Shown here in pieces: positions 1 through 28,436 of a stretch of DNA of 28,436 nt. Position 1 is the first letter of the stretch. Each line of letters begins with the position of its first letter. The position numbers and the translations under genes were made by a program. Origin of the DNA: a plasmid. Under the pieces are notes generated by a model, which had not been told where the DNA came from, did not search any database, and was given only the letters and a program-made list of their open reading frames with translations. The stretch lies in sequence record NZ_CP021969.1; one strand, 5' to 3'.

Positions 1-73
1 CTGTCTCCCAATTAGATATGGTTTTATTAGACACCAATAATTTATTAGCCAAATCCATTTGTGTTAGAGACAT
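1..73 (-). CDS. 5' end (first ~24 codons) of XRE-family HTH regulator gene; gene body lies upstream of window start (partial)
   Basis: Reverse complement of 1-73 begins ATGTCTCTAACACAAATGGATTTGGCTAATAAA (MSLTQMDLANK), identical to the start of the 14302..14033 ORF. GAGG RBS on minus strand at 80-90. Confidence 0.5.
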   Translation of the reverse strand, partial: MSLTQMDLANKLLVSNKTISNWET

Positions 74-316
74 TTTTTGCCTCTTTGCTTTTATCAAATT
101 ATGGAATATCACGACTATCCTCCCTGCACTTGTTATGACATTAAACATATCCCTATGACGTCAATTTAGCAATGGAAAGTCCTTACCAATCCTTATGATA
201 AGGGTTCATTATCGTGCTATTTAAAGTTAACCAAAATTGATTTGAGCTACTTTCACTGCGCTTCAATTAATATTTATTATGTTAGTTTATTTAGTTCAGC
301 TGTTATTTTTCTACCA

Positions 317-356
317 GAAGTCAAGTGTTTCAAGGTACTTGACTTCTTTTCTTTTT
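317..356 (+). terminator. Perfect 10-bp inverted repeat (GAAGTCAAGT / ACTTGACTTC, 10-nt loop) followed by TTTTCTTTTT; orphan rho-independent terminator-like hairpin
   Basis: Seen directly; no plus-strand CDS precedes it. Confidence 0.4.
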
Positions 357-597
357 AGCTTCCTTCATTAAAAAAATCCAGATTAAGCAGTAAATTAACA
401 CAAAAATACCCTCAAATTATTTCTTCAACCTGATATATATTCAATATGCTATATATTGTTTGAATGGATAAAATTAGACTATTAAAAAATGCCAATTTTA
501 ACATAATTATCGGCTATAATTCTATAACATTTAATAAATGAGGATAATTGATTGATGAACACTATATTATTAATTAAAAAAAGTTGAGCAAATTTTC

Positions 598-626
598 TTG
601 TTTTCTTTTATGAAAACGTTTACAAT
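598..626 (+). promoter_or_regulatory. Sigma-70-type promoter TTGTTT-17nt-TACAAT upstream of dehydrogenase operon
   Basis: -35 at 598-603, -10 at 621-626, about 40 nt upstream of RBS AAAGGAG and ATG at 669. Confidence 0.45.
611..624 (+). promoter_or_regulatory. Catabolite-responsive element (cre) TGAAAACGTTTACA overlapping promoter spacer and -10
   Basis: Perfect fit to cre consensus WTGNAANCGNWNNCW (preceding base A); the position overlapping the -10 would give CcpA-mediated repression. Confidence 0.5.
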
Positions 627-668
627 TTAAGATGTTCATGGTGTGAAAAAAATCAAAGGAGAACAAAC

Positions 669-1685
669 ATGGAAGCACTTGTGTTAACTGGTACAAAAAA
701 ATTAGAGGTTAAAAGCATTGAAAAACCTGAGGTTAAGCCCAATGAAGTTTTGATTCATACAGCATTCGCTGGTATTTGTGGTACTGATCATGCTTTGTAT
801 GCCGGCCTTCCCGGCTCAGCAGATGCTGTACCACCAATTGTTTTGGGTCATGAAAATTCCGGTGTTGTAGCTGAGATTGGTTCATCTGTTACAAACGTTA
901 AGGTAGGAGACCGTGTGACGGTTGATCCTAATATTTACTGCGGTCAATGTAAGTATTGCCGTACGGGACGCCCAGAACTTTGCGAAAACTTGTCGGCTGT
1001 TGGTGTTACACGTAATGGTGGATTTGAGGAATACTTTACGGCACCTGCATCAGTTGTTTACCAAATTCCTGATAATGTGTCATTGAAGTCAGCTGCTGTG
1101 GTTGAACCTATTTCATGTGCAGTGCACGGAATTAAGTTGCTTAAAGTAACACCATATCAAAAAGCTTTAGTTATTGGTGATGGATTTATGGGTGAACTAT
1201 TTGTTCAACTTTTGCAAGCTTATGGCATTCACCAAGTCGATTTGGCCGGTATTGTTCCTGAAAAGCTTGCTATGAATAAAGAAAATTTTGGCGTGAAAAA
1301 CACCTACAATACCAAAGATGGTGATAAAATTCCTGAGGGCGCTTATGATGTTGTTGTTGAAGCAGTTGGTTTACCACAAACACAAGAAGCAGCCATTGAG
1401 GCTTCAGCCCGTGGTGCTCAAGTTTTGATGTTTGGTGTTGGCGGTCCTGACGCAAAGTTCCAAATGAACACTTATGAAGTCTTCCAAAAGCAATTGACGA
1501 TTCAAGGATCATTTATCAATCCAAATGCCTTTGAAGATTCATTGGCATTGTTGTCATCAGGCAAGTTGAATGTTGAGGATTTGATGTCACATGAATTAGA
1601 CTACAAGACTGTTGACGATTTTGTTAACGGTAAGCTTGGTGTCGTTTCCAAAGCTGTGGTTAAGGTTGGCGGAGAAGAGGCATAA
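669..1685 (+). CDS. Zn-dependent medium-chain dehydrogenase (polyol/sorbitol or alcohol dehydrogenase family), 338 aa
   Basis: Catalytic Zn Cys in GICGTDHALYAG, GHENSGVVAEIG motif, structural-Zn cluster CGQCKYCRTGRPELC, Rossmann GxGxxG (VIGDGFMG). RBS AAAGGAGAACAAAC-ATG. Confidence 0.9.
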   Translation: MEALVLTGTKKLEVKSIEKPEVKPNEVLIHTAFAGICGTDHALYAGLPGSADAVPPIVLGHENSGVVAEIGSSVTNVKVGDRVTVDPNIYCGQCKYCRTGRPELCENLSAVGVTRNGGFEEYFTAPASVVYQIPDNVSLKSAAVVEPISCAVHGIKLLKVTPYQKALVIGDGFMGELFVQLLQAYGIHQVDLAGIVPEKLAMNKENFGVKNTYNTKDGDKIPEGAYDVVVEAVGLPQTQEAAIEASARGAQVLMFGVGGPDAKFQMNTYEVFQKQLTIQGSFINPNAFEDSLALLSSGKLNVEDLMSHELDYKTVDDFVNGKLGVVSKAVVKVGGEEA

Positions 1686-1688
1686 TCA

Positions 1689-2417
1689 ATGGATTCACAA
1701 GACGTCTTAGACAGTAAAATTCATGGTCGCAAGTTAACAATTGGTGTCTCATTGTCTTATTTTATTTTCTCTTTAGTGATTAATGCTGCCGGTAACGTTT
1801 TAACTGTTGTTACAAGTCAAAAAATACACCCAACCTTTTTAGGATCAGCGTATTGGACTGCTGCATCAGCTGGAGTTAATAAAGCGATATTTAATGGAAA
1901 CAGCAGCATGCTGGGATGGGTGTTTTTCGTTATTGGTGTGGTTGTTGCTATTTTAAATGTCTTTCTTCAGGGACACTTTAACGCAAGAAAATTTTTTGGT
2001 AACATTGCATTCATGGTGCCTTTCTCCGCATTGATTAGTTATTTCGCCAATATCTTTTCAAGCATTATGCCTGATTCACAAAGTATTGGTATGACAATTT
2101 TCTATGTTATTTTAAATTTTTTCGGTGTTTTCTTAATTGCCATTGCTATTTCTATTTATCAACGTGTTAATTTGGTATTACATCCAGCAGATGATTTGAT
2201 GCAAATTTTACGCTTTAAATATTTTAAAGGTTCCGCGGCCAAGGCCATGTGGGCGTCCTATATTCCACCAACTATCTTAGCTATTATTGCAATCATCATT
2301 TACCCTGATTTTTCAAATTATGGGTTAGGAACAGTTTTTGCCTTCTTATTCCAGGGTGGTATAACTGGTTGGGGAGACAAGGCAATTTTCCCAAATTTAA
2401 AGCACCAAGGCGTGTAA
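1689..2417 (+). CDS. Uncharacterised integral membrane protein (about 6 predicted TM segments), translationally coupled to dehydrogenase
   Basis: ATG 3 nt after dehydrogenase stop; strongly hydrophobic segments throughout; no recognisable transporter family motif. Confidence 0.7.
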   Translation: MDSQDVLDSKIHGRKLTIGVSLSYFIFSLVINAAGNVLTVVTSQKIHPTFLGSAYWTAASAGVNKAIFNGNSSMLGWVFFVIGVVVAILNVFLQGHFNARKFFGNIAFMVPFSALISYFANIFSSIMPDSQSIGMTIFYVILNFFGVFLIAIAISIYQRVNLVLHPADDLMQILRFKYFKGSAAKAMWASYIPPTILAIIAIIIYPDFSNYGLGTVFAFLFQGGITGWGDKAIFPNLKHQGV

Positions 2418-2463
2418 AAGTAACTGATAAATTAATGGTTAATATCTTAAAGGAGCAAATTAA

Positions 2464-2847
2464 ATGGCATTTTCAGATTATTATTCAGGGGTCCAACACA
2501 TTGGTATTCCTACAAAAGATTTGGCAACAGCAGAAAGTTTTTGGACAAAACTTGGTTTCAAAAAGACGGGTGATTTCCCAGTCGGAGATGTTATCTTTAT
2601 GCAGCGCGATAATTTAGTTATTGAGACTTGGCACGCTGATGAGGTGGCTGGTAAGCCTGGTGCGATTAATCATATTTCAATGGATACAACAGACGCTGAT
2701 GCTGCTTTTGCTGCAGCCAAATCTGAAGGGTTTGACTTAATCGACGATGAAGTACAACATTTAGATTTCTGGAAAAAAGGAATTAAATTCTTTAATATTT
2801 CGGGACCAGATGCTGTGATTGTTGAATTTTGTGAAATTGTTAAGTAA
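2464..2847 (+). CDS. VOC / glyoxalase-bleomycin-resistance-fold protein, 127 aa
   Basis: Typical beta-alpha-beta VOC pattern (GIPTKDLATAESFWTKLGF...INHISMDTTDADAAF); RBS AAAGGAGCAAATTAA-ATG. Confidence 0.8.
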   Translation: MAFSDYYSGVQHIGIPTKDLATAESFWTKLGFKKTGDFPVGDVIFMQRDNLVIETWHADEVAGKPGAINHISMDTTDADAAFAAAKSEGFDLIDDEVQHLDFWKKGIKFFNISGPDAVIVEFCEIVK

Positions 2848-2858
2848 AAGATGTTTCT

Positions 2859-2887
2859 CAACGGCTATCTTGCGATGGCCGTTTTTT
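2859..2887 (+). terminator. Weak hairpin (ACGGC/GCCGT, 12-nt loop) plus T6 after the VOC gene; possible partial terminator or attenuator
   Basis: Seen directly; only a 5-bp stem. Confidence 0.25.
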
Positions 2888-3018
2888 CAGACATTTTCAG
2901 GGAGAATTATTATGTAAAAATATTAGCTTAAATTGTCTGTGAACAATCTATTAGACTCACAATGATGAGCGCTATATGATTACTGTGAATAATTAATTGA
3001 TAAAGAAAAGAGAACAAG

Positions 3019-3888
3019 ATGGGATTATTGGGTGCAATTGAAGCAGGTGGAACAAAATTTGTTGTTGCTGTAGCTGATCATAATTATAATATTGTAGAGC
3101 GTACAGCATTTCCAACGTTGGATGGTCAGAAAACGCTTGATCAAGTTATTTCGTTTTTTGATCAGTTCGATAATATTGATGCAATTGGTATTGCTGCCTT
3201 TGGCCCAATTGATATTATTGAGCAGTCTAAAACATATGGGTATGTTTTGGCCACTCCAAAAACAGGTTGGTCTGGGTATAACTTTTTGGGACGAATGAAG
3301 GAATGGCGTGACATTCCCTATTATTGGACAACTGATGTTAATGGAGCTGGCTGGGCAGAGTTTGAAACAGGTGCCGCAAAAAACGTTGACAATATGGTTT
3401 ATTTGACCGTAGGTACTGGTGTTGGAGCTGGTATTGTATCTAGTGGCCATTTAGTGAGTGGCTATAGCCACCCAGAAGCTGGACATATTTTCTTGCAAAA
3501 GCATCCAGCCGACAATTATGTGGGGCACTGCCCCTTCCATGATGATAATTGCTTGGAAGGTCTTGCGGCTGGACCTGCTATTGAGGAACGTTGGCATATG
3601 AGTGCTAAAGAAATTCCTGATGATGCTGAAGCATGGAAAATAGAAGCATTTTACTTAGCTCAGGCAGCGTTGGATTATACAATGATTCTACGTCCAGATA
3701 AAATCGTTTTTGGCGGTGGGGTGCCACATCGTGAAATGTTATTCCCACTCATTCGTGAAAGTTTTGCAGAACAAATGAGTGATTATCTTGATGTGCCAGA
3801 CTTAGACAATTACATTGTTCCTGTAGCGAATGGTGATAATGCCGGAATTTTGGGTTGTTTTTACTTGGCCAAAACATTATTGCCTTAA
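3019..3888 (+). CDS. ROK-family fructokinase, 289 aa
   Basis: N-terminal LGAIEAGGTKF ATP-binding motif; ROK zinc motif GHCPFHDDNCLEG; overall ROK sugar-kinase length. Confidence 0.9.
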   Translation: MGLLGAIEAGGTKFVVAVADHNYNIVERTAFPTLDGQKTLDQVISFFDQFDNIDAIGIAAFGPIDIIEQSKTYGYVLATPKTGWSGYNFLGRMKEWRDIPYYWTTDVNGAGWAEFETGAAKNVDNMVYLTVGTGVGAGIVSSGHLVSGYSHPEAGHIFLQKHPADNYVGHCPFHDDNCLEGLAAGPAIEERWHMSAKEIPDDAEAWKIEAFYLAQAALDYTMILRPDKIVFGGGVPHREMLFPLIRESFAEQMSDYLDVPDLDNYIVPVANGDNAGILGCFYLAKTLLP

Positions 3889-3960
3889 AATATAATTTTG
3901 TTAATTACGCTTAACATAGATAAAGCAAATAATACTTGTCATTGTCTAAAGTCCATTATT

Positions 3961-4542
3961 TTAACCAAAATTAATTTGATCTAATATTGTTTCTCGGCTT
4001 GCTTGATCTAATCCTAAATAAGTTAACGTCATTGCTTCACTAGAATGATTTAACAATTGCATAACCAATCCAATATTATAGTTGGACTGCATGTAGACGC
4101 GATAAGCACCAGTTTTTCGCATGGTATGGGTGCCTATCCCTAAAAGGTCGCCAACCTTAGCCATAACCTTGTAGAATTGTTTCTCAGTAATATGACGCTC
4201 TGGGTGCTGAATTGAGGGGAAAAGCCACTCAGAAATCAGATTTTGTTGCTGAAGCCAATCATAGTAATCCAGTAAATCAGCGTGAACAGGTTTGAGGTAG
4301 AGAGTGTTGGCTTTACCTGTTTTTTGATCGTGGATGAATGTATTTTGCTTAATCGTTCCATCTGCGGTGAATACATCAGACCTTTTCAGCTGCATGACAT
4401 CACTAACCCGTAGTAGGGTCGCTTTACCCAGTTGAAAAATGGTGTAATTACGCCTGCCTGCACGAAAACTATTTAAAAGGGTCTCCTGAACATTTTTTAA
4501 AATGTTGGAATCTTTAATCGGTAAAACAATTTGTTGCACCAT
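3961..4542 (-). CDS. Minimal tyrosine recombinase / phage-integrase-family protein (catalytic domain only), 193 aa
   Basis: Catalytic signature residues: R in LLRVSDV, HTMRKTGAYRVY (HxxR box), C-terminal HSSEAMTLTYLG (nucleophile Tyr). No N-terminal core-binding domain. Confidence 0.8.
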   Translation of the reverse strand: MVQQIVLPIKDSNILKNVQETLLNSFRAGRRNYTIFQLGKATLLRVSDVMQLKRSDVFTADGTIKQNTFIHDQKTGKANTLYLKPVHADLLDYYDWLQQQNLISEWLFPSIQHPERHITEKQFYKVMAKVGDLLGIGTHTMRKTGAYRVYMQSNYNIGLVMQLLNHSSEAMTLTYLGLDQASRETILDQINFG

Positions 4543-4608
4543 TAGCTAGTCACCTCTTTATTTAAACGTTAGAATCAAGCCATATAGGCGTTATTTTAAT
4601 TATAAGCT

Positions 4609-4656
4609 AAAAAACAGCCCCTAACAAACCAAAGCGATTTGTTAGGGGCTGTTTTA
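4609..4656. terminator. Bidirectional rho-independent terminator: A6, 14-bp perfect stem (CAGCCCCTAACAAA / TTTGTTAGGGGCTG), then T4
   Basis: Seen directly; lies between the integrase start and the copB 3' region. Confidence 0.55.
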
Positions 4657-4904
4657 ATAGTCTTTCCTAGGGGTCATTATATAATTATAGACCCTGAGTT
4701 AAGGAATGTACTGATGTTTTCTAGTACAGTCCCTAGTTTGATAATGTTTATTGTATTTTTCTGTATTTAGTTATTCGATGATATCGAGGCTAATATGTCA
4801 GTCTTCCAAGCAGCCATTGGTTAGTATATCAATTTTTATAATCGCAATCGTATCTCAAATGTTGCCTAAGTAACTGAATAAAAATAGTCCAATTTATTGA
4901 CTTC

Positions 4905-4950
4905 TGAGCAAAAAGGAAGAGATGATTTTTTAAATTATTTCATCTCTTCC
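4905..4950 (-). terminator. copB rho-independent terminator: 11-bp perfect stem (GGAAGAGATGA / TCATCTCTTCC) followed on minus strand by a T-run
   Basis: Seen directly, about 70 nt downstream of copB stop (5019) on minus strand. Confidence 0.6.
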
Positions 4951-5018
4951 TTTCCTGTGAAACTATTGTATTTTTACACGATAAGGTCATTCAATTATTT
5001 CATGTGCCAAATAACTGT

Positions 5019-7229
5019 TTATTTTGGCTCTAATTTCAATGTCATAGCATTGATGGCAACAATTACAGTCGAAAGTGACATCAAGACGGCAGCGACTGCT
5101 GGACTTAATGTTATGCCAATTGGTGCTAGTATTCCTGCAGCTATTGGGATCGCGATAAAGTTATACCCTGCTCCCCAAACAAGATTTTCTTTCATCTTAC
5201 GTGTGGTCTTCTGAGCCAACTCGATAAAGGATTCAATGTCGCCAGGGTCTGACTGTGTCAAGATGACATCGGCTGAATCCAATGCTACTTGAGTTCCGGC
5301 ACCAATAGCTATACCAACGTCTGCTAGTGCAAGAGACGGTGCATCGTTGACCCCGTCACCGACCATGATAACTTTCTTTTCTTCTGCTTTAAGTTTTTCA
5401 ACTAATTCATATTTGTCTTGAGGAGATTGATTAGCTAGATAATCAATACCTAAAATTTCTGCAGCCCCTTGAGCCGCTTTTTCATTGTCACCCGTTGCCA
5501 TAATCGGCTGAATCTTGTTCTTTTTAAGGGCTTGTATTAAGGCTTTACTTGTCGGTTTTAATTCATCCCCTAAAGCTACAGCACCGATTGCTTCGTCGTT
5601 TTCTACTAAGACACTGAGGGTTGATCCTTTTGGAATATCCATATCCAGATTACGTCCATATGCTTTTTGACTGATTAATTGATAACGATGTCCGTTAGCT
5701 TGACCTTCTACACCAGCGCCAGAAATAACATCAATCGAATCAAAACTTACTGGACGTATCCCTTGATGTTCTGCGTAACTAATAATTGACTGAGCGATAG
5801 GGTGACTAGATCCACCTTCGATACCTGACAATAAGGCAACGATTTCATCTTTCGTATATTTATCATTAAGGAGTTCAACATCTAATACTTTAAACTCACC
5901 AGTTGTTAAAGTTCCAGTTTTATCTAAAACCATAACATCTGCGTTTGTAGTCAACTCCAAAGCGTCCCGGTCCTTCACTAATAATCCCCGACTGGCCCCT
6001 AAGCTGGTACTACGAGCAGTCACCAATGGAATAGCCAGACCCAGGGCATGCGGACAAGCAATAACTAATGTGGTGACTGTAAAAATAACTGCCGTTGGTA
6101 CATCAGCTATAACCATCCATATGACAAGGGCAATAAGAGCTACAATAACCGCAATATAAAAGAGCCATCCTGCAACTTTTTGTGCAAGATTTTCTGTTCG
6201 AGAATGTTGGCTTTGAGCTTGACTGATTAATGTCTGAACCTGAGAAATGAAGGACTTATCGCCCGTCTGCTTTATTTCCACATAGAGGACTCCGCCACCA
6301 TTGGTTGATCCACCGATGACCTCATCTCCAGGATTTTTTTCAATTGGTTTCGATTCCCCAGTCACAAGCGCTTCGTTTACACGTGATTCGCCACGCTGGA
6401 TCGTTCCATCTGCTGGAACATTTTCTCCGGCTTGAACACGAATCAAATCACCTACTTGCAAGTCAGCAACTGGACGAGTCTCAATCGAATCGTCTTCTAA
6501 AACAACATGAGCATCTTTCGGCACCAACTCAGCCAATGCTTTTTGCGCGTCCCCTGCTTCACCCAATGCCTTCATTTCAATCCAGTGTCCTAATAACATG
6601 ATTAAAATTAACGTTGTAAACTCAAAGAAGAAGTCCATGACATGTTCTCCGGTCACATATCGAGCGGCCACTGCGTAAACACTATAGGTATAAGAAACCG
6701 TTATTCCCAAAGTAATCAAGGACATCATGCCTGGAGCTTTTGAATTAAACTCATCTTTCGCACCCATGAAGAATGGTTTTCCGCCAAAAATGTATAGAAT
6801 TGTTGCCAATACAGCTGCTACAACGTCTGCATAAGGAAAGATAATTTGGAAAGGCAACTGAATATCCATCAAAGGAGTAATGAGTAAGATTGCAATTCCT
6901 AATGGGAGTGACTTCAAGAAAATCTCCTTAAAGCTACCGTGATGGTGGTGGGCATGCCCTCCCATTGCGCCATGATCCATTTCACTGTGATCCATCGCAT
7001 TATGATTCATCTTGCTGTGATCCATCTGACTATGTTCCATTTCATTATGGTCGTGTTTTGAGTGTTCCATGTCGCCGTGATGGTGGTGGGCATGCCCTCT
7101 CATTGCGCAATGATCCATCGCACTATGATCCATCTGACTATGTTCCATTTCATTATGGTCGTGTTTTGAGTGTTCCATGTCGCCGTGATTATGATGACTA
7201 TGTGACGAATGTTTTTTGTTATTCCTCAT
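5019..7229 (-). CDS. copB: Copper-translocating P1B-type ATPase (CopB/TcrB-like; His-rich N-terminus, CPH motif), 736 aa
   Basis: TGES (ALVTGESKP), CPH (VIACPHALG), DKTGTLT, GDGVNDAP motifs; N-terminal repeats rich in His/Met/Asp (HDHNEMEHSQMDHS). Confidence 0.95.
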   Translation of the reverse strand: MRNNKKHSSHSHHNHGDMEHSKHDHNEMEHSQMDHSAMDHCAMRGHAHHHHGDMEHSKHDHNEMEHSQMDHSKMNHNAMDHSEMDHGAMGGHAHHHHGSFKEIFLKSLPLGIAILLITPLMDIQLPFQIIFPYADVVAAVLATILYIFGGKPFFMGAKDEFNSKAPGMMSLITLGITVSYTYSVYAVAARYVTGEHVMDFFFEFTTLILIMLLGHWIEMKALGEAGDAQKALAELVPKDAHVVLEDDSIETRPVADLQVGDLIRVQAGENVPADGTIQRGESRVNEALVTGESKPIEKNPGDEVIGGSTNGGGVLYVEIKQTGDKSFISQVQTLISQAQSQHSRTENLAQKVAGWLFYIAVIVALIALVIWMVIADVPTAVIFTVTTLVIACPHALGLAIPLVTARSTSLGASRGLLVKDRDALELTTNADVMVLDKTGTLTTGEFKVLDVELLNDKYTKDEIVALLSGIEGGSSHPIAQSIISYAEHQGIRPVSFDSIDVISGAGVEGQANGHRYQLISQKAYGRNLDMDIPKGSTLSVLVENDEAIGAVALGDELKPTSKALIQALKKNKIQPIMATGDNEKAAQGAAEILGIDYLANQSPQDKYELVEKLKAEEKKVIMVGDGVNDAPSLALADVGIAIGAGTQVALDSADVILTQSDPGDIESFIELAQKTTRKMKENLVWGAGYNFIAIPIAAGILAPIGITLSPAVAAVLMSLSTVIVAINAMTLKLEPK
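6936..7196. repeat. In-frame tandem duplication (units of about 138 and 108 nt) encoding the His-rich metal-binding N-terminus of CopB
   Basis: GTGATGGTGGTGGGCATGCCCTC... recurs at 6939 and 7076; the protein shows GDMEHSKHDHNEMEHSQMDHS...GHAHHHH twice. Confidence 0.7.
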
Positions 7230-7367
7230 TTTTAATTCCTCCTTATTATATTAGAGACTGATTTTAAAGTTTTAGAACTTTCTCATCTAACACTGCATAT
7301 AATTCTCATGAAAAGGGTTCTATACTTTATCTCTATCTACTATCTATGAATAAATGGTATTCGTACT

Positions 7368-7732
7368 TTATGCACTTAATACTGAATAGTTAGTTTCTGC
7401 TAAAGCAGCATTGAGCGTTTCGGTATCAATCTCTGTTTGACTTTCAAGTACTGCTTTTTTAGTCGCTAAATCAACCTCTACAGATTCAACCCCTTCAATT
7501 GCAAAGGTTTGCGTCTTTCCCTCTTGGGCAATCAGTTCATACCCTGAATTATCCACCGCTTTTTGTAGATTTTCTACCGAAAAAGTTGGTTCATTGTATT
7601 CTATACTCAACTTTTCTGTTGCTAGGTTCACGGAAGCCTGTGTGACCCCACGTACTTTTTTGCCGCTTTTTCTACTGTCTGCGCACAAGACGCACAGGTC
7701 ATACCTTCTATGGCAAACGATTTATTCTCCAA
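7368..7732 (-). CDS. copZ: CopZ-like copper chaperone (HMA domain), apparently frameshifted at an A6 run; second degenerate HMA-like half
   Basis: From TTG at 7732 (GGAG 8 nt upstream): LENKSFAIEGMTCASCAQTVEKAAKK in one frame, then the ORF-track frame continues VRGVTQASVNLATEKLSIEY... A 1-nt shift at GCAAAAAAG joins them. The same shift is present in copy 2. Confidence 0.6.
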
Positions 7733-7744
7733 TTTTTTCGCTCC

Positions 7745-8200
7745 TTATTCTCCATGATGATGTAAATGGCAATCGCATTGCCCTTCTGTACACTGACAAT
7801 CTACTTCTTCTACTGCGAAAGCTTTTTTCATCTCTAATATTTCTTCTAGTCGCTGGATATCATCGAAGCTTAAGACATGATCTTCAATGACACTCCCTAC
7901 TACACTCCCGACATCCTTTCGACAAATACGGTTGAAAATATCGTCTGTATAATTTCCTACGGCTTCTTTCTCTTCAATATTGGTAGTATAAATAAATTTT
8001 CTACCTTCTTGCTCTGTATTTAGTACGCCTTTTTCAACCAGTCGACCTAAGAGCGTTTTGATAGTGGCTTGTTTCCAGTCCATTTTTTCTTTCAATATGG
8101 AGATGATTTCTTTACTAGTCACTCGACCATTCGCCCAGACTACACGCATAACTTCCCATTCAGCATCTGTGATATGAGGGTTAACTACTATTGTACTCAT
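7745..8200 (-). CDS. copY: CopY/TcrY copper-responsive repressor (BlaI/MecI/CopY family), 151 aa
   Basis: N-terminal winged helix (ITDAEWEVMRVVWANGRVTSKEIISIL...TIKTLLGRLVEKGVL); C-terminal CxCx4CxC (CQCTEGQCDCH); RBS GGAGGGAAAGAG. Confidence 0.9.
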   Translation of the reverse strand: MSTIVVNPHITDAEWEVMRVVWANGRVTSKEIISILKEKMDWKQATIKTLLGRLVEKGVLNTEQEGRKFIYTTNIEEKEAVGNYTDDIFNRICRKDVGSVVGSVIEDHVLSFDDIQRLEEILEMKKAFAVEEVDCQCTEGQCDCHLHHHGE

Positions 8201-8250
8201 TCTCTTTCCCTCCTTATTGTCTACATGCGTAAACGTAAATGTTTGAGATA

Positions 8251-8280
8251 AGTTTACTATTGTAAACCATTCCTGTCAAG
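8251..8280 (-). promoter_or_regulatory. copY promoter (TTGACA-17-TAAACT on minus strand) with overlapping cop-box palindrome GTTTACTATTGTAAAC (8252-8267)
   Basis: Perfect -35 TTGACA at 8275-8280 (minus); 16-bp perfect palindrome containing the TAC..GTA core of CopY/BlaI operators. Confidence 0.55.
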
Positions 8281-8344
8281 TCTTTTTTAAATAAATGTAA
8301 CCAGCTATTATTGCCTTTATTTTCCTATCTTTACCCAATACTAA

Positions 8345-8620
8345 TTATAAGGTTACCATTGATTTACTTTTATTGATTTTAGAATTCCTTATTTTTAAAA
8401 TCTCAAGTTCTTCGCGAAGTTTGTCGTTTTCCTTTTGTAATGCGTTTACATCAGCTTGCGTCCATTTTTCGCCGTCCACTTCGTGGACCGCGTACAGCTT
8501 GACCTAGTTACGGATTGAGTCGACCGAAGGTCCGTATTCAGCGGATAGATCAGTATATGAACGGCCTTGATTGTGCATCTCAACAAGAGACTGCTTAAAT
8601 TCTTTTTTGTATCGAATCAT
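8345..8620 (-). pseudogene. Truncated IS3-family transposase OrfA remnant with in-frame TAG (TGG to TAG) and loss of downstream orfB
   Basis: Minus-strand translation MIRYKKEFKQSLVEMHNQGRSYTDLSAEYGPSVDSIRN*VKLYAVHEVDGEKWTQADVNALQKENDKLREELEILK (HTH plus leucine-zipper typical of IS3 OrfA), then unrelated tail; RBS AGGAGC. Confidence 0.6.
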
Positions 8621-8733
8621 ATTAAAAAATGCTCCTATGCTATTAGTTTACAGGGCAGAAGAAAATCTGTCCGTAAATCTAGCATAAGAGCATTCCGCCA
8701 TTTAACTAGTCTTCTTTTCTTTTTTAGTTGTAA

Positions 8734-10459: not shown

Positions 10460-10571
10460 ATAAATACGCTCCTTTAGGCGTGTTGTTGGATAAGCATAAA
10501 GAAAAACTTTTAGTCGGGAATTTCTTTATGCTTTTATTATAACATTATATAGCGACAAAATATTTTAAACA

Positions 10572-10647: not shown

Positions 10648-10762
10648 TACCTATTAAACCCTTGATATTACTGAATTTCTAACTACGCAAAAGAACAAAA
10701 GATTAAAATATAAAAGATAAACTTATAATAGGCTCCGCCTTTTTATTGATTCAATAAAAAAC

Positions 10763-12271: not shown

Positions 12272-12289
12272 AAAATTCTATTTTGGACA

Positions 12290-18105: not shown

Positions 18106-18176
18106 AATATAATTTTGTTAATTACGCTTAACATAGATAAGCAAATAATACTTGTCATTGTCTAAAGTCCATTATT

Positions 18177-19199: not shown

Positions 19200-21426
19200 T
19201 CATGTGCCAAATAACTGTTTATTTGGCTCTAATTTCAATGTCATAGCATTGATGGCAACAATTACAGTCGAAAGTGACATCAAGACGGCAGCGACTGCTG
19301 GACTTAATGTTATGCCAATTGGTGCTAGTATTCCTGCAGCTATTGGGATCGCGATAAAGTTATACCCTGCTCCCCAAACAAGATTTTCTTTCATCTTACG
19401 TGTGGTCTTCTGAGCCAACTCGATAAAGGATTCAATGTCGCCAGGGTCTGACTGTGTCAAGATGACATCGGCTGAATCCAATGCTACTTGAGTTCCGGCA
19501 CCAATAGCTATACCAACGTCTGCTAGTGCAAGAGACGGTGCATCGTTGACCCCCGTCACCGACCATGATAACTTTCTTTTTCTGCTTTAAGTTTTTCAAC
19601 TAATTCATATTTGTCTTGAGAGATTGATTAGCTAGATAATCAATACCTAAAATTTCTGCAGCCCCTTGAGCCGCTTTTTCATGTCACCGTTGCCATAATC
19701 GGCTGAATCTTGTTCTTTTTAAGGGCTTGTATTAAGGCTTTACTTGTCGGTTTTAATTCATCCCCTAAAAGCTACAGCACCGATTGCTTCGTCGTTTTCT
19801 ACTAAGACACTGAGGGTTGATCCTTTTGGAATATCCATATCCAGATTACCCATATGCTTTTTGACTGATTAATTGATAACGATGTCCGTTAGCTTGACCT
19901 TCTACACCAGCGCCAGAAATAACATCGAATCAAAACTTACTGGACGTATCCCTTGATGTTCTGCGTAACTAATAATTGACTGAGCGATAGGGTGACTAGA
20001 TCCACCTTCGATACCTGACAATAAGGCAACGATTTCATCTTTCGTATATTTATCATTAAGGAGTTCAACATCTAATACTTTAAACTCACCAGTTGTTAAA
20101 GTTCCAGTTTTATCTAAAACCATAACATCTGCGTTTGTAGTCAACTCCAAAGCGTCCCGGTCCTTCACTAATAATCCCCGACTGGCCCCTAAGCTGGTAC
20201 TACGAGCAGTCACCAATGGAATAGCCAGACCCAGGGCATGCGGACAAGCAATAACTAATGTGGTGACTGTAAAAATAACTGCCGTTGGTACATCAGCTAT
20301 AACCATCCATATGACAAGGGCAATAAGAGCTACAATAACCGCAATATAAAAGAGCCATCCTGCAACTTTTTGTGCAAGATTTTCTGTTCGAGAATGTTGG
20401 CTTTGAGCTTGACTGATTAATGTCTGAACCTGAGAAATGAAGGACTTATCGCCCGTCTGCTTTATTTCCACATAGAGGACTCCGCCACCATTGGTTGACT
20501 CCACCGATGACCTCATCTCCAGGATTTTTTTTCAATTGGTTTCGATTCCCCAGTCACAAGCGCTTCGTTTACACGTGATTCGCCACGCTGGATCGTTCCA
20601 TCTGCTGGAACATCTTTCTCCGGCTTGAACACGAATCAAATCACCTACTTGCAAGTCAGCAACTGGACGAGTCTCAATCGAATCGTCTTCTAAAACAACA
20701 TGAGCATCTTTCGGCACCAAACTCAGCCCAATGCTTTTTTGCGCGTCCCCTGCTTCACCCAATGCCTTCATTTCAATCCAGTGTCCTAATAACATGATTA
20801 AAATTAACGTTGGTAAACTCAAAGAAGAAGTCCATGACATGTTCTCCGGTCACATATCGAGCGGCCACTGCGTAAACACTATAGGTATAAGAAACCGTTA
20901 TTCCCAAAGTAATCAAGGACATCATGCCTGGAGCTTTTGAATTAAACTCATCTTTCGCACCCATGAAGAATGGTTTTTCCGCCAAAAATGTATAGAATTG
21001 TTGCCAATACAGCTGCTACAACGTCTGCATAAGGAAAGATAATTTGGAAAGGCAACTGAATATCCATCAAAGGAGTAATGAGTAAGATTGCAATTCCTAA
21101 TGGAGTGACTTCAAGAAAATCTCCTTAAAGCTACCGTGATGGTGGTGGGCATGCCCTCCCATTGCGCCATGATCCATTTCACTGTGATCCATCGCATTAT
21201 GATTCATCTTGCTGTGATCCATCTGACTATGTTCCATTTCATTATGGTCGTGTTTTGAGTGTTCCATGTCGCCGTGATGGTGGTGGGCATGCCCTCTCAT
21301 TGCGCAATGATCCATCGCACTATGATCCATCTGACTATGTTCCATTTCATTATGGTCGTGTTTTGAGTGTTCCATGTCGCCGTGATTATGATGACTATGT
21401 GACGAATGTTTTTTGTTATTCCTCAT
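19200..21426 (-). pseudogene. copB: Copy 2 of copB, broken into at least 5 fragments
   Basis: Fragments 19200..19559, 19902..20516, 20532..20840, 20773..20985, 21097..21426 reproduce copy-1 CopB segments, including GDGVNDAP, DKTGT and His-rich repeats. Confidence 0.85.
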
Positions 21427-21564
21427 TTTTAATTCCTCCTTATTATATTAGAGACTGATTTTAAAGTTTTAGAACTTTCTCATCTAACACTGCATATAAT
21501 TCTCATGAAAAGGGTTCTATACTTTATCTCTATCTACTATCTATGAATAAATGGTATTCGTACT

Positions 21565-21929
21565 TTATGCACTTAATACTGAATAGTTAGTTTCTGCTAA
21601 AGCAGCATTGAGCGTTTCGGTATCAATCTCTGTTTGACTTTCAAGTACTGCTTTTTTAGTCGCTAAATCAACCTCTACAGATTCAACCCCTTCAATTGCA
21701 AAGGTTTGCGTCTTTCCCTCTTGGGCAATCAGTTCATACCCTGAATTATCCACCGCTTTTTGTAGATTTTCTACCGAAAAAGTTGGTTCATTGTATTCTA
21801 TACTCAACTTTTCTGTTGCTAGGTTCACGGAAGCCTGTGTGACCCCACGTACTTTTTTGCCGCTTTTTCTACTGTCTGCGCACAAGACGCACAGGTCATA
21901 CCTTCTATGGCAAACGATTTATTCTCCAA
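21565..21929 (-). CDS. copZ: Copy 2 of copZ-like HMA gene with the same A-run frameshift
   Basis: Identical ORF (MCADSRKSGKKVRGV...). Confidence 0.55.
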
Positions 21930-21942
21930 TTTTTTCGGCTCC

Positions 21943-22398
21943 TTATTCTCCATGATGATGTAAATGGCAATCGCATTGCCCTTCTGTACACTGACAATCT
22001 ACTTCTTCTACTGCGAAAGCTTTTTTCATCTCTAATATTTCTTCTAGTCGCTGGATATCATCGAAGCTTAAGACATGATCTTCAATGACACTCCCTACTA
22101 CACTCCCGACATCCTTTCGACAAATACGGTTGAAAATATCGTCTGTATAATTTCCTACGGCTTCTTTCTCTTCAATATTGGTAGTATAAATAAATTTTCT
22201 ACCTTCTTGCTCTGTATTTAGTACGCCTTTTTCAACCAGTCGACCTAAGAGCGTTTTGATAGTGGCTTGTTTCCAGTCCATTTTTTCTTTCAATATGGAG
22301 ATGATTTCTTTACTAGTCACTCGACCATTCGCCCAGACTACACGCATAACTTCCCATTCAGCATCTGTGATATGAGGGTTAACTACTATTGTACTCAT
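21943..22398 (-). CDS. copY: Copy 2 of copY repressor; intact
   Basis: 151 aa identical to copy 1; cop box copy at 22450-22465. Confidence 0.9.
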   Translation of the reverse strand: MSTIVVNPHITDAEWEVMRVVWANGRVTSKEIISILKEKMDWKQATIKTLLGRLVEKGVLNTEQEGRKFIYTTNIEEKEAVGNYTDDIFNRICRKDVGSVVGSVIEDHVLSFDDIQRLEEILEMKKAFAVEEVDCQCTEGQCDCHLHHHGE

Positions 22399-22540
22399 TC
22401 TCTTTCCCTCCTTATTGTCTACATGCGTAAACGTAAATGTTTGAGATAAGTTTACTATTGTAAACCATTCCTGTCAAGTCTTTTTTAAATAAATGTAACC
22501 AGCTATTATTGCTTTATTTCCTATCTTTACCCAATACTAA

Positions 22541-22817
22541 TTATAAGGTTACCATTGATTTACTTTTATTGATTTTAGAATTCCTTATTTTTAAAATCTC
22601 AAGTTCTTCGCGAAGTTTGTCGTTTTCCTTTTGTAATGCGTTTACATCAGCTTGCGTCCATTTTTTCGCCGTCCACTTCGTGGACCGCGTACAGCTTGAC
22701 CTAGTTACGGATTGAGTCGACCGAAGGTCCGTATTCAGCGGATAGATCAGTATATGAACGGCCTTGATTGTGCATCTCAACAAGAGACTGCTTAAATTCT
22801 TTTTTGTATCGAATCAT
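22541..22817 (-). pseudogene. Copy 2 of IS3 OrfA remnant
   Basis: C-terminal ...KWTQADVNALQKENDKLREELEILKIRNSKINKSKSMVTL identical; extra T in a homopolymer upstream. Confidence 0.55.
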
Positions 22818-22930
22818 ATTAAAAAATGCTCCTATGCTATTAGTTTACAGGGCAGAAGAAAATCTGTCCGTAAATCTAGCATAAGAGCATTCCGCCATTT
22901 AACTAGTCTTCTTTTCTTTTTTAGTTGTAA

Positions 22931-23510
22931 CTATTTACCAAAACGCCACCACTTTTTAGGTTTAGGTTGTGACTCCGGGGTGCTATTTTCAGGTTCCGGT
23001 TGTTTGTCTGACGTCACTTCTTTTTCACCATCATCATGCGGTGCCATCGTTAAGGCTTTCAAGTCCTTAATTTCTGCCTTGTATTCTTCGAGCAGTTGTT
23101 TGTCCTGTAAGGCTAGCCGTTGTTGTTGGTCTAATAAATTTTGCATTTGGTTCAATTGCTTAAAGTGTTGTGATTTAGTTTCTTTTAAATCTTCTATTTG
23201 TGCATTCTGATACTTAATAATGTCATTTAAGTAGTTAATATCTGAATATTTTAGGTTGGCGTTTTCAAAGTTTTCGGTTTTTGATTCTGGTTGTTGATAT
23301 GTGTTTTCGGTTTTCGATTTATGGTTGTCGATTCCAGACGAAAACATTGTTCTTATAGCCTTTTGTCCGTTTTCGTTAACCAAAAACCGGTTCCCGTTTT
23401 TTGAAAAACCATTGTTTTCGTTCGCTATCCGAAACTTTTTTGTTAATTGCAGTCTTACTAACTCCTAACTCATCAGCGAGTTCTCGAATTGTTTTTAAAT
23501 TTTCACTCAT
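22931..23510 (-). pseudogene. repB: Copy 2 of repB-like gene; N-terminal frameshift
   Basis: 150-aa ORF matches the copy-1 C-terminal portion. Confidence 0.65.
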
Positions 23511-24660
23511 GATCTATATCCTGCCTTTTAACGATTGGTAGATACTGTTCAATCGATTTTTTAAGATACTTAGCAATATTCTTTTTCGAATAGTCCATCT
23601 TGTTTGTCTCTGATATAGGCTAAGTGTTCTTTCACGCCCTTTAAACCACGTGACTCTTTTAATTCGTCATAAAGTGGATAAACATTTTTCTGTAACCCTG
23701 ACAAAATAGTAGTATCCGTTAAATCAATATATGACAATAAAAACTGCTCCATAAGTAACTTTGTATAGGGACTTTTTATTGCCTTAACAGTCAACATATC
23801 TTCTGTTTCTTCTTGACGGATCTTGCCCTCGATATAAACGGGATCATCTAGCTTGTAACTAATATCATCTGCCACTTGGTTTTTAGTGATATGAAAGACA
23901 ATACTCTCAATGCTGCGTCCTTTTTTTACTTTTTCATACGTAACATTAAAGCTGGTATGGTTTGTGATTTCTTTAATCGGATCTTTTAATACTCTTCTTT
24001 CAAAATCAGTAAACTTTTTATATTCACTCACCGTATCGGTCGTGTCGCGCAATTCCCGAATAGTGATTATCGGATTACGGTAACTTTCCACTTGCTCTTC
24101 TCTTCGCCCACCTTTAACGCTGTAATGCTCATATTGGTTGTAATTCATTGATAACCAACGGTACAAAATGATTGCATACTTGCTATTCAATTCAGAAATT
24201 TCTGATAAGGCATGTTGCGTAAAATTGGTTTTGAGATTGATTAAATAAGGCATGATTTCGGGGCTAAATCGAATTAATACCTCATCATGATAATCAGTCC
24301 ATTCCACATAAGGGATTGGCACAATACTAACGAATTTAAAACCTTTATCTTGTTCTTTTTTAATCTGAAAAAAAGCCTGTTTTTGCATTTTTTCAATTGC
24401 TTCTTTAAAAACGACTATGTTTATTGCTATCATCCACGTTAAAAAAAGCAAATAACTCTTGCTTGGATAAATAAACTGTCTGGTCTTTCGGTGGATTTTC
24501 TGTATCAATTAAAGAAACAGCTAATTCAAACATTTTAAGCGGTGTTTTAATCCATTTTGGCAATCGACGTGATTAGGCTATTATGTTCAACTACTTTTCG
24601 TTTTGATAATTCATTCAAGGTCTGTACCTGCCTTGTCTTTGATTCTGTTATAATAGACAT
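23503..24660 (-). pseudogene. repA: Copy 2 of repA; frameshifts near both ends
   Basis: 312-aa ORF matches copy-1 internal residues; N- and C-termini diverge by frame. Confidence 0.8.
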
Positions 24661-24772
24661 ATAAATACGCTCCTTTAGGCGTGTTGTTGGATAAGCATAA
24701 AGAAAAACTTTTAGTCGGGAATTTCTTTATGCTTTTATTATAACATTATATAGCGACAAAATATTTTAAACA

Positions 24773-24850
24773 GTCGCTATATACATAGTTTTTTTGTCGC
24801 TATATACATAGTTTTTTGTCGCTATATACATAGTTTTTTGTCGCTATATT
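24773..24850. repeat. Iteron array copy 2 (first unit has one extra T)
   Basis: Same 22-bp units as copy 1. Confidence 0.75.
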
Positions 24851-25163
24851 ACCTATTAAACCCTTGATATTACTGAATTTCTAACTACGCAAAAGAACAA
24901 AAGATTAAAATATAAAAGATAAAACTTATAATAGGCTCCGCCTTTTTATTGATTCAATAAAAAACAAAACAAAAAGAACACTGGTGCACATAAATTTCGT
25001 ACAGAGTGTTCTTTTTGTTTTGAATCATTTCAAATGCTGGATACCTAGTTATCTATCATAATTGCCACTTATTAAGCCAATAGCGACGTTTTAAGTTACT
25101 TAATGATTATTTCTACGTATTTCATCTAAAAACGCTTAGACGGGCAAATAAGCCGTTATAACG

Positions 25164-26400
25164 TTAGAGACTGGGTCCTTTAAAAATATCACGCGTTAAT
25201 TCAATGATCCGATTGATTAATGCTTTAACTTGTTCAATACCCCAATCTAATCTACTAGGTGCTATTTTGGTGTCTGGATCTTCTCTAGCTGTCGTCAAGG
25301 TTTTTAACCATGACTGGGCCGTTTTTTTTATTTTTTGTCAGTTCTTCATGATCAAGCTTATAAAGGACATAGCGGGCCTCCACATCAGTAAAGGACAGTT
25401 TGTCGACACCATAATCATTTTTAAGCATATCGCGCATCACATAGTCCATCTTTTGCTTTTCTCGTTGATCTGCCTGCAGCGTTTGATGTGCTGCTTTCAG
25501 TTTTTGATAGTCTTCTTGGACAGCTGCTAGCTGCGCTTTGACTTGTCTTAACGTTTGCTTGAGTTCTTCCGTCTCATTCTGGCTTTGTAGGGTGGCTTTC
25601 TTCATCGTGGCTAACACACTTTTAAAGCGATCTAAGTCATCTGGTTTAAGCACCGTCTTACCAAAGAGGTTTTTAGATAAGTCTTGTTTAAAGTCATCAA
25701 TTTGTTTTTCGGCTAAGTCAACTTCGGTTAAGGCTTGATCCGTGATTTTGAGTACAGCCTGTTTAGCACGAATATTTTCTTCAACGTCAGCTAGTTCATC
25801 CTTCAAGGCGTTAAACTGATCATTGTATTTTTTGATTTCAGCGACATTCTCAAACGGTAAGGTTTTATTATTTAAAATGCCTTTTTCATAAAAAGGGAGC
25901 CCCTTTTTTAAATCCTGATCTAGATCCTCATGAAAGGTTTGTAGATCATGACGCGTTAGCACTTCTTTAGCGGATACTTTATAACGTGTCTTTTTATCAT
26001 CAAAAACCACTGGGACAAAGGCATAGTGCAAGTGAGGGGTTGTCTCGTCATAATGCACGACAGCGGCCACGGCATTTTCTTGACCATAACGGCCATTAAG
26101 AAAATTGGTGGTTGCTTCAAAAAAGGCGCTCTGTTGCTCGTAGGGCGCTTCTGTAAGTTCTTCAGGTAAAGTGACAATCCAAGTCGCTAACGCCTTCACA
26201 TCGTCTCTTTTCATGCAATAAACGTCATTTAAACGCTCATTGAAACGTGAAAGCATATCAGAACCATCTGTCATCAGATCTTGATTCAGATAGGTTTTCG
26301 ACACATCAATATCTTTGTTAGTGTGATGGTCGGTTTTACGCTCAAAATGAACGGCTAAACCAGGCACTGCACCACGGGTATTTTTCTTTAAATGCGCCAT
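25164..26400 (-). pseudogene. mob: Copy 2 of MobV relaxase; C-terminal frameshift
   Basis: 386-aa ORF identical to copy 1 until ...ELTKNKK, then diverges. Confidence 0.8.
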
Positions 26401-26457
26401 AAAAATTGCCTCCTCGAAAAAGGTTTTACGAGACCAGTATAACACCGTTAAAAATCT

Positions 26458-26475
26458 GGTATAGCCTGTTATACC
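26458..26475 (-). other. Candidate oriT copy 2
   Basis: Identical GGTATAGCCTGTTATACC. Confidence 0.45.
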
Positions 26476-26828
26476 AAAATTCTATTTTGGACAGGCTCTG
26501 CGAGGCGTGTCATCGACAAGCGATGCCAGTAGCGTTTCCCCTTCCTGCTGGGGAAACTGCTATTTTACAGCGCCTATTATCCGGCTTGTAAAACCTCCGG
26601 CGGGTCACGCCGTGACAGGGCAATTTATCATTGCAGGATCACCTTCAGTGAGAGCATGTCATGCAGAACGCTACCCGCGCGGGGCAAGCTGGTGTCAGCT
26701 TAACCACAATAAAATAATCTGTAAACGTAAGTGTATAATAACAAAAAAATTGTAGTGGACTATCGCAATTAATAGGTGTTATACAATAAAAGCAAACAAA
26801 AAGGCACCCTTAAGGTGCCCACATTATT

Positions 26829-26933
26829 TTAACGATCATTAAGATCATCAAAATAACGTTTAATTGCGAACGTCACAACAGCAACACAGATTGCGTTAAA
26901 CAATTGTGTAAGTTCTTGAAAAAAGTAAAACAT
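26829..26933 (-). CDS. Fst-like toxin copy 2; intact
   Basis: Identical 105-nt ORF and RBS. Confidence 0.5.
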   Translation of the reverse strand: MFYFFQELTQLFNAICVAVVTFAIKRYFDDLNDR

Positions 26934-27530
26934 GGAGTCTAAACCTCCTTGCCGTTGCAGTATAGTAGGAAACAACAGCTTTTTAAGTATATCATGTTTT
27001 GAAATACCAATAATATAGTGTTATAATGTTAATAGAAGAAAGTACATGGAGACTAACCTCTCTAGTAAAAAGGGCTAGTGCGTAGGAACACCAGCTCTTT
27101 TTGTTTGTCTTTTTTGAAGCAAGTTTCCTTTCAGGGCAAGACAGTGTATAATTATAAACAATAACTGCCATGAAACAGCTCTGCTGTTTCAAAGGCTTGG
27201 GCCAGTACGCTGGGCAAGCCTGGTGGCCCACTTTAAAATACAGTGACGCTGATAGTATGATGGCTAGACTGTTATTTTTGACAATTAAAGGCGCTTCAAA
27301 AAATTTCTTTAACCCCCAAATCACTAATAGGGGGGTTAAATTTACAAAAAAGCCAACAGGCAAACAACCCTCATGCTTACGGGGAGTCGGGTTACAGCGA
27401 AAAAATATTCGTGTAAAAATCGCTGTAATAATGAAAATATGATGATAAAAATCGCCTGTAAGATGGCATTTTTTATTATATAAATCATTTTTAGGTTGCT
27501 ATCAAGCTATTTACGATTAAGGAGGATTAT

Positions 27531-27815
27531 ATGACATACAATGCGATTAAAGGACGCTTTACACGCGTTGCGCCCGATAAATCGACAGTATACGGTGATA
27601 AGCAGTACACCTTTGCCTTAACACCAGAACAAAGTGAACAGATTGACCAGGCTGTTTATGCGGTTGTCCTGGCCAAAAATTACAAAACGACCTCGTTCTC
27701 AATTGATGAGAAGTTAACGTTGTCTGACGAAGAAGTCGCCCAACACAAATTGGTGGTCCGTTTACGCCTCCGCAAAAAGCACAAACAGCCGTCTCATAAA
27801 CCGCTCACGGACTAA
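27531..27815 (+). CDS. 94-aa basic-tailed hypothetical protein copy 2; intact
   Basis: Identical protein. Confidence 0.7.
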   Translation: MTYNAIKGRFTRVAPDKSTVYGDKQYTFALTPEQSEQIDQAVYAVVLAKNYKTTSFSIDEKLTLSDEEVAQHKLVVRLRLRKKHKQPSHKPLTD

Positions 27816-27996
27816 AATTTCACAAATCCTAAAAGCCTTGCTACCAGCATTGTGAGAGCTAGACCAATTATTTTTAGCTCAATTCACAAGAACAGATCAC
27901 AGAAAAAGCGCCAAACCCTATTTATTTCAGGTTTGGCGCTTTTTAGTTTAGATAAGCTACATTATGTTTGTTGAGTTTCTAGTATTCCCCAGTTAC

Positions 27997-28436
27997 TTAA
28001 TTAATACTAGATCCGACAAACCCTCTTATCAAACCGTCTATAACTTCCATTACTGGTATAACTGCGTACAAAAATATCAACAGGCCTATGGCAATGATCA
28101 GTTTTTTATTTAAAATACTAATCAATGAATGCCAGTTAATTTTTGTTAGAATGTATATGATTAGCACAAGGATTGGAATAGCTAAATAAGTAGATACGTT
28201 TGATTCGATTGAAGCCAAAATAGCTGAGTAGAACAATTTTAAAAATAAATAACCGATAGTTCCAACTACCATTGCACTGATTAGGCTTATCGTAACCACA
28301 CGATAAAATTTGCGTTCTTGTTGATTTTCTCTTAATTTTTCAACCATAGTTTCATCTCCCAAAAATAAATCATCTAATGACAAGTTTAAGTATTTAGATA
28401 TTAAAATAATATTTTCAATATCGGGTAACGTTTTAC
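27997..28436 (-). CDS. XRE-HTH / 3-TM regulator copy 2 in fused (probably genuine) reading frame; 5' end runs past the window end
   Basis: Continuous ORF ...ENQQERKFYRVVTISLISAMVVGTIGYLFLKLFYSAILAS...; window end coincides with the unit boundary. Confidence 0.65.
   Translation of the reverse strand, partial: KTLPDIENIILISKYLNLSLDDLFLGDETMVEKLRENQQERKFYRVVTISLISAMVVGTIGYLFLKLFYSAILASIESNVSTYLAIPILVLIIYILTKINWHSLISILNKKLIIAIGLLIFLYAVIPVMEVIDGLIRGFVGSSIN

Follow-up and report, generated by a model that had tools for sequence, protein, structure and literature searches.

The stretch of DNA considered here, referred to throughout as the window, comprises 28,436 nucleotides (nt) of plasmid record NZ_CP021969.1 (positions 1-28436, one strand) and holds two tandem copies of a plasmid of about 14.2 kb, which differ from one another only by insertions and deletions (indels). 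The term unit denotes one plasmid length, and positions in the clean unit, the corrected form of the plasmid, follow the numbering of copy 1. The central question is why the same replicon should be written twice within one record, once correctly and once in a form that breaks most of its genes. The copies, and the stretches with and without errors, are arranged as follows:

1-14229: copy 1 (14,229 nt), right at each checkable site in 1-11119 and with three deletion errors, at 13071, 13720 and 14035
14230-28436: copy 2 (14,207 nt), with 62 indel errors within 14302-25322 and right from 27275 to its end
13071-25322: error-bearing stretch, bounded by the outermost errors, with 39 deletions and 26 insertions (about 4.6 per kb)
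27275-28436: first part of the error-free unit-length, which on a circular contig runs on into base 1
1-11119: second part of the error-free unit-length, 100% identical to the JGI contig Ga0121675_100111

Fundamental to the interpretation of the window is its twofold structure, which is apparent in that (i) the offsets between repeated 25-mers, taken over the whole window, group at 14190-14230, (ii) a MAFFT global alignment of 1-14229 with 14230-28436 is collinear from end to end with zero end gaps, and (iii) the wrap-around junction formed by the last 150 nt and the first 150 nt is the same as the internal junction at 14229/14230, save for one T6/T7 run. A first-pass annotation, made from the letters alone, had described two collinear tandem copies of just these lengths, and the offsets, gap-free ends and equal junctions bear it out. 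The window contains exactly 2.000 units, head to tail (14,229 + 14,207 nt), which suggests closure of the contig into a circle and not a ragged overlap between its start and end.

The differences between the copies are all of one kind. The raw alignment gives 64 indel events and two apparent substitutions, but both of the latter lie in a misaligned segment at 8315-8320 and represent two 1-nt homopolymer deletions (GCC>GC and TTTT>TTT). The tabulation of substitutions against indels by sequence context, which the first-pass annotation had proposed as a check, therefore ends at 0 against 65, with enrichment in homopolymers. Most of the indels (58) are 1 nt long; four measure 2 nt, one measures 4 nt and two measure 5 nt. 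Of the 32 1-nt deletions 26 fall inside runs of at least three identical bases; in the test against a background of 22.8% of bases the count is 25 of 30 (p=4e-12), and 13 of the 26 1-nt insertions adjoin or extend such runs, compared with 7.3% expected (p=7e-9); about one third of the insertions (9/26) are at non-homopolymer sites. A perfect 18-bp hairpin (4611-4628/4638-4655) loses TTTGT from its 3' arm through one of the 5-nt deletions, and the other, of ATATA, is between short complementary GGGTC/GACCC arms at about 4671-4694, the arms having been read by eye. The initial description of single-base homopolymer indels with a few 5-nt deletions in hairpins is thus accurate for the deletions and for the two 5-nt sites, and inaccurate for the insertions, half of which lie outside runs of at least three. 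Nor is copy 2 simply shortened, since deletions over its first 5.7 kb are followed by insertions over the next 5 kb. Coding sequences (CDSs) contain 43 of the 65 indels, which is the chance rate for a coding fraction of 73% (p=0.21), and the placement of the indels in coding and non-coding DNA shows no sign of selection.

Which of the two alleles is right at each of these differences, and how are the wrong ones distributed? Each difference was searched for, together with 12 nt of flank, in 23 independent loci, after merging to 63 sites. The loci include three PLSDB plasmids, eight short-read metagenome contigs, ten contigs that encode an identical alcohol dehydrogenase (ADH) protein and one JGI contig that encodes identical MobV and copper ATPase (Cu-ATPase) proteins. 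At all 63 sites one allele is present in between 1 and 13 of the 23 loci and the other is present in none. At the sites in 73-11119 the supported allele is always that of copy 1, regardless of which copy is longer at the site, and at 13071, 13720 and 14035 it is that of copy 2. The errors, three in the tail of copy 1 and 62 in copy 2, form a single contiguous block with the length of one unit, the true limits of which lie within 11120-13070 and 25323-27274. The complementary unit-length, 27275-28436 continued by 1-11119, shows zero indels against any relative. The earlier statement that each copy contains errors is consequently right in that both are hit, and misleading in that the errors occupy one contiguous unit-length rather than being scattered as noise across both. 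A reading in which the middle of the contig is bad and its ends are good was also considered; it dissolves once the contig is viewed as a circle, on which there is one bad and one good unit-length.

The clean unit can be assembled from copy 1 up to position 12000 and the tail of copy 2 (about 26205-28436), giving 14,232 nt, with the cut point free to lie anywhere in unit positions 11120-13070. In this composite 13 of 13 CDSs are intact and have the lengths seen in relatives, in agreement with the earlier expectation that the true gene set would have to be recovered from a consensus of both copies. Comparison with relatives makes the same distinction. When aligned to relative L001 over 4,680 nt, the clean unit shows 5 mismatches and no gaps, and the bad unit shows 27 gap openings in addition to these 5 mismatches; aligned to L002 over 1,073 nt, the clean unit shows 28 mismatches and no gaps. 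The JGI contig (JGI 3300011677 Ga0121675_100111, L024; 15,647 nt) agrees with the unit in gene order, is 100% identical to copy 1 across 1-12270, and differs from the clean unit by 39 substitutions and 3 indels, all within 12271-12961, upstream of mobV. Taken over L001, L002 and the JGI contig, natural divergence in the plasmid family amounts to about 72 substitutions and 3 indels, and the premise that it is dominated by substitutions is upheld.

Independent assemblies also inform on the length of the unit. The overlap between the ends of the JGI contig gives a period of 14,178-14,231, which implies a unit of about 14.2 kb, although the support is partial as the overlap is divergent. One end of this contig is a 94-97% variant of the region 12.6-14.2 kb, and its last 294 nt are unmatched at the threshold used. 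The divergence from 12271 onwards suggests either a hypervariable segment or two co-occurring variants on one backbone. L001 and L002 each run across the unit junction once.

The genes and other features of the clean unit, against which the damage in the record can be gauged, are the following (aa, amino acids; ORF, open reading frame; HTH, helix-turn-helix; IS, insertion sequence):

669-1685, plus strand: Zn-dependent alcohol dehydrogenase family protein (ADH), 338 aa
1689-2417, plus strand: "fructose permease" (DUF6198), 242 aa
2464-2847, plus strand: VOC/glyoxalase family protein, 127 aa
3019-3888, plus strand: ROK family sugar kinase, 289 aa; the best NCBIfam match, fructokinase ScrK, is below the family cut-off
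3961-4542, minus strand: small tyrosine recombinase ("site-specific integrase"), Xer-like, 193 aa
4611-4655: perfect 18-bp hairpin between A and T runs, similar in form to a bidirectional terminator; TTTGT of its 3' arm is lacking in copy 2
4805-4916 (and 19004-19115): solo IS3-family end remnant, about 110 nt
4912-4953: second hairpin, just beyond the Cu-ATPase stop
5019-7229, minus strand: copper-translocating P-type ATPase (Cu-ATPase) with a His-rich repeat N-terminus, 736 aa; TIGR01511, 646 bits (cut-off 397)
7368-7688, minus strand: 106-aa ORF lying between copY and the Cu-ATPase gene, with two partial HMA/CopZ-like domains that match profile positions 21-62 only
7745-8200, minus strand: CopY/TcrY copper-responsive repressor, 151 aa; TIGR02698, 192 bits (cut-off 122)
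8734-9312, minus strand: 192-aa protein with a weak HTH at its N-terminus, its gene overlapping repB and following directly downstream; annotated "DNA-binding protein" in relatives
9305-10459, minus strand: RepB/Rep3 theta initiator, 384 aa, with Rep3_N, Rep3_C and L_lactis_RepB_C
10459-10544, plus strand: ctRNA_pND324 antisense RNA; Rfam RF00238, 76.1 bits (gathering score 45)
10572-10647: iterons, a 22-bp unit repeated 3.5 times with 100% matches (Tandem Repeats Finder), upstream of repB
10961-12196, minus strand: MobV relaxase, 411 aa; NCBIfam NF041497, 133 bits (cut-off 100), and Pfam Mob_Pre, 4.6e-29
13326-13610, plus strand: conserved hypothetical protein, 94 aa
13791-14378, minus strand: XRE-family HTH regulator with a transmembrane C-terminal part (XRE-TM), spanning the unit junction

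In copy 2 eight of these CDSs are frameshifted, namely those for ADH, the permease, the VOC protein, the ROK kinase, the Cu-ATPase, the 192-aa HTH protein, RepB and MobV. The load ranges widely, with 18 indels in the Cu-ATPase gene and 5 in that for ADH, and in MobV the frameshift is near the C-terminus only. The genes for CopY, the HMA/CopZ-like ORF and the 94-aa protein carry no indel at all. The copy-2 integrase (18177-18758, minus strand) keeps its 193 aa because a -1/+1 pair of errors 12 nt apart compensates, with the result that residues 159-163 change from LVMQL to FGYAM; a protein that is full-length and yet has five wrong residues means that ORF length alone under-reports the damage. 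The earlier claim that nearly all CDSs of copy 2 are frameshifted is for these reasons somewhat overstated, even though eight are broken. The accompanying claim, that the XRE-TM gene is hit by an indel in copy 1, is confirmed by the deletion at 14035, and at the internal junction the gene is broken a second time by the copy-2 insertion at 14302. Its intact form, of 195 aa, is read from 148..1 joined to 28436..27997. Outside the CDSs, a T6>T7 error at 24789 lies inside an iteron of copy 2.

The absence of substitutions, the homopolymer context, the chance rate of hits in coding DNA and the variant alleles seen nowhere else together indicate that the differences between the copies are errors and not the outcome of evolution. 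The first-pass annotation had proposed a single circular plasmid of about 14.2 kb with long-read noise in its copies, and this is supported by the error spectrum, by all 63 alleles, by identity to the JGI contig and by the coding-rate test. The window is best regarded, with a probability of roughly 0.82, as the product of a long-read assembly in which one circular plasmid of about 14,232 bp became a circularised contig of twice its length, so that the doubled, half-polished state would be an artefact of assembly and polishing and not biology. In this process the assembler would go twice round the circle and then close the contig. Polishing reads would be placed on either of the near-identical copies, after which the slightly better copy would draw the reads, such that the read-attracting unit-length (27275-28436 and 1-11119) would become fully corrected and the other would stay at draft quality with its 65 indels. 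We infer from the sequence that the assembler, rather than a real dimer, gave rise to the doubling and that uneven read placement left one copy unpolished.

There is precedent for such behaviour. Long-read assemblers are described as doubling small plasmids even from simulated reads that contain monomers only (PMC6966772), "doubled plasmids" are listed among the structural errors of automated assemblies (PMC9980784), and the multiplication of a plasmid by an assembler is noted to be hard to tell apart from true multimerisation (Plassembler, PMC10326302). The contigs described in these three papers resemble the present one in that the replicon is smaller than 20 kb, is written at about 200% of its length and carries homopolymer indels, with repeats that hinder polishing. 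The present case differs in being an exact 2.000 closed circle rather than having a ragged overlap of start and end. A further feature, not described in these papers as far as they were read, is the confinement of the errors to a single contiguous unit-length, midway through which deletions give way to insertions.

That switch is sharp. Between 13071 and 19924 there are 36 deletions and 9 insertions, and between 20499 and 25322 there are 2 deletions and 17 insertions; the difference in the deletion/insertion split at 19924-20499 has a Fisher p of 2.6e-7, for a split point that was chosen post hoc. The error density reaches 8-11 per kb at 18-21 kb, on both sides of the switch, and elsewhere in the bad stretch is 1-5 per kb, save for 8 in 14-15 kb. 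The deletion-rich half has a nanopore-like error type, and the insertion-rich half, in which many insertions are at non-homopolymer sites, is unlike nanopore; the sequencing platform is not inferable from the error spectrum of the 65 indels. The 19.9-20.5 kb segment may be a seam where an original linear contig was closed through its two poorly supported ends, the resulting circle being rotated afterwards.

Several points weigh against an assembly artefact as the full account of the window. These are that (i) the assembler origin of the doubling is deduced from the assembled sequence, (ii) PLSDB holds no closed record of the exact 14.2-kb plasmid, where the best record covers 73% of the unit at 96% identity and none covers more, (iii) the end overlap of the JGI contig, at 94-97%, shows the unit length and not a clean closed circle, and (iv) the sharp change from deletions to insertions at 19924-20499 is left unexplained by a simple model in which one copy is starved of reads.

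The strongest alternative is that the plasmid forms real head-to-tail dimers, at least in part, through failed multimer resolution, with the 65 indels still being consensus errors. Here reads that span more than one unit would have guided the assembler to a correct dimer structure. Plasmid multimers do exist, and closure at 2.000 units is as compatible with a circular dimer as with an assembler loop. Yet a doubled contig is not in itself evidence of a dimer, given the doubling already documented for monomer-only simulated reads (PMC6966772), and an assembler would normally collapse copies that are truly identical. The independent assemblies show a single unit, both in the period of about 14.2 kb in the JGI contig and in the single crossing of the junction by L001 and L002, and the plasmid itself encodes an Xer-like tyrosine recombinase that, from its inferred function, could resolve dimers. 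Dimers in some proportion are accordingly considered unlikely though far from negligible, and the stricter proposition, that the plasmid is genuinely kept as a head-to-tail dimer wholly or in large fraction and that only the indels are errors, a shade less likely again.

A genuine dimer or tandem duplication in which copy 2 is decaying by frameshift mutations is recommended solely by the fact that most copy-2 CDSs are broken and those of copy 1 are intact. Against this are zero substitutions among 65 differences, where natural relatives show about 72 to 3 in favour of substitutions; the homopolymer bias of the indels and their indifference to coding DNA; the offset of the supposedly decaying block by about 1.2-3 kb from copy 2, such that it takes in the tail of copy 1; and the failure to find any of the 63 variant alleles in a relative. 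Homologous recombination between 14-kb repeats at 99.5% identity would also be expected to bring about rapid collapse or homogenisation, which counts against decay. With no substitutions, a bias to homopolymers and no avoidance of coding DNA the proposal is effectively refuted and its probability is minimal.

A strain mixture, in which two co-resident plasmid variants were chained into one contig, is equally remote and is effectively excluded: the JGI contig seems to chain two variants of the region 12.3-14.2 kb, with ends 94-97% identical, and so shows that mixtures of this plasmid family exist, but such real variants differ by substitutions concentrated in 12271-14232, where the window has only three homopolymer deletions and no substitution, and the other differences are frameshifts that would inactivate repB and most of the genes.

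Under the preferred account, in which one circular plasmid was written twice during assembly, the significance of the finding is confined to quality control. When the record is taken at face value, both the size and the gene count of the plasmid are doubled, the XRE-TM regulator gene is split, and about ten false pseudogenes appear, including a broken repB and a broken Cu-ATPase gene, with mobV truncated near its C-terminus; copy-number and pangenome statistics are inflated. The unit to annotate is the corrected 14,232-bp circle with its 13 intact CDSs. Finding one unit-length clean and the other dirty is a simple signature that needs no reference, and with its help doubled plasmid contigs in public collections could be flagged and repaired.

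A second doubled-plasmid contig of the same family is present in public data. L015 (JBNFUL010000006.1, 35,320 nt) repeats at a perfect 17,801-nt period, with about 1.98 units and no indel differences, as judged from 3,196 of about 3,216 possible 21-mers in the part that was fetched. In each of L016 (JGI Ga0455766_000530) and L020 (CP026848.1, Weissella koreensis) the RepB-MobV set is present twice, at a spacing of about 13.9 kb and in similar though non-identical form, which suggests real cointegrates of related plasmids, in contrast to the artefactual doubling seen here.

The true replicon is circular, with about 14,232 bp and a GC content of 37%, and is a mosaic plasmid of an ordinary type known from kimchi Leuconostoc and Weissella. 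Its make-up is typical of pCI305/pND324-type theta plasmids of lactic acid bacteria that rely on MobV for mobilisation. It represents a new combination of known modules, for which a near-identical independent sighting exists in the JGI contig. The module made up of the XRE, ADH, fructose permease, VOC, ROK and integrase genes is common to Leuconostoc mesenteroides WiKim32 plasmid unnamed3 (NZ_CP037751.1) and SRCM103460 plasmid unnamed2 (NZ_CP035748.1) at 99.7-99.9%, without gaps, and the WiKim32 plasmid also shares the RepB-MobV backbone at about 93%. Both of these plasmids are larger (25.9 and 22.8 kb, respectively) and bear other cargo in the form of fucose, thioredoxin and MFS genes, and the WiKim32 plasmid lacks the cop module present here. 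A scan of metagenome contigs returned the eight short-read contigs of relatives, at about 92% identity. In the phage collection there were only short matches to the cop module and to the IS remnant, and nothing pointing to a phage.

The replication module has the features of a theta replicon. RepB matches PF01051 (9e-37), PF21205 (4e-19) and PF06430 (1e-58), all above their cut-offs, and the ctRNA is placed at the 5' end of repB, with its second copy in the window at 24660-24745. Following the iterons is an A/T-rich stretch (GC 26-27% across 10500-10800), and the two together constitute the predicted theta origin. The combination of a Rep3/RepB protein with L_lactis_RepB_C, 3.5 iterons of 22 bp, an A/T-rich stretch and ctRNA_pND324 is akin to that of the lactococcal pCI305/pND324-type theta replicons. 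It differs from these in that its closest relatives reside in Leuconostoc and Weissella, not in Lactococcus.

The copper module resembles the Enterococcus hirae cop operon in having CopY and a copper P1B-type ATPase, and differs from it in that no intact CopZ is found. At the position of the 106-aa ORF every CopZ model scores below its cut-off (49 against 91 bits), and the N-terminal part that normally bears the CxxC metal site is unmatched. The ORF is identical in the JGI contig and is therefore real rather than a sequencing error; from its partial matches it is probably a degenerate HMA/CopZ remnant. L003 lacks 207 nt of it. With the start codon chosen for it in the JGI contig, the Cu-ATPase is 719 aa long. 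Its N-terminus (6970-7160, minus strand) is a His-rich leader of the HSxHDHNEMEH type with a 108-nt internal duplication and 15-nt sub-repeats, and the number of leader repeats varies among relatives, L003 aligning in two registers.

Between the integrase gene and the copper module lies the element of about 110 nt, which corresponds to the 3' end of an IS3-family element with an rve transposase in L014, L017 and L018 and, as such, marks the junction of the two modules. Many relatives contain this element as well, L008 in three to four copies, and a 47-nt piece of it matches Lactobacillus phage LF1. Close by, the segment 4646-4729 (81-84 nt; 5011-5094 in L004) is the only part in common with the 50.6-kb contig2 of Leuconostoc aquikimchii MS01, at 94-95% identity. 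From a start within the 3' arm of the hairpin at 4611-4655 it extends across the GGGTC/GACCC hairpin, and it may be a recombination hot spot; within 4668-4695 homology to L001 and L002 stops and homology to L003 starts.

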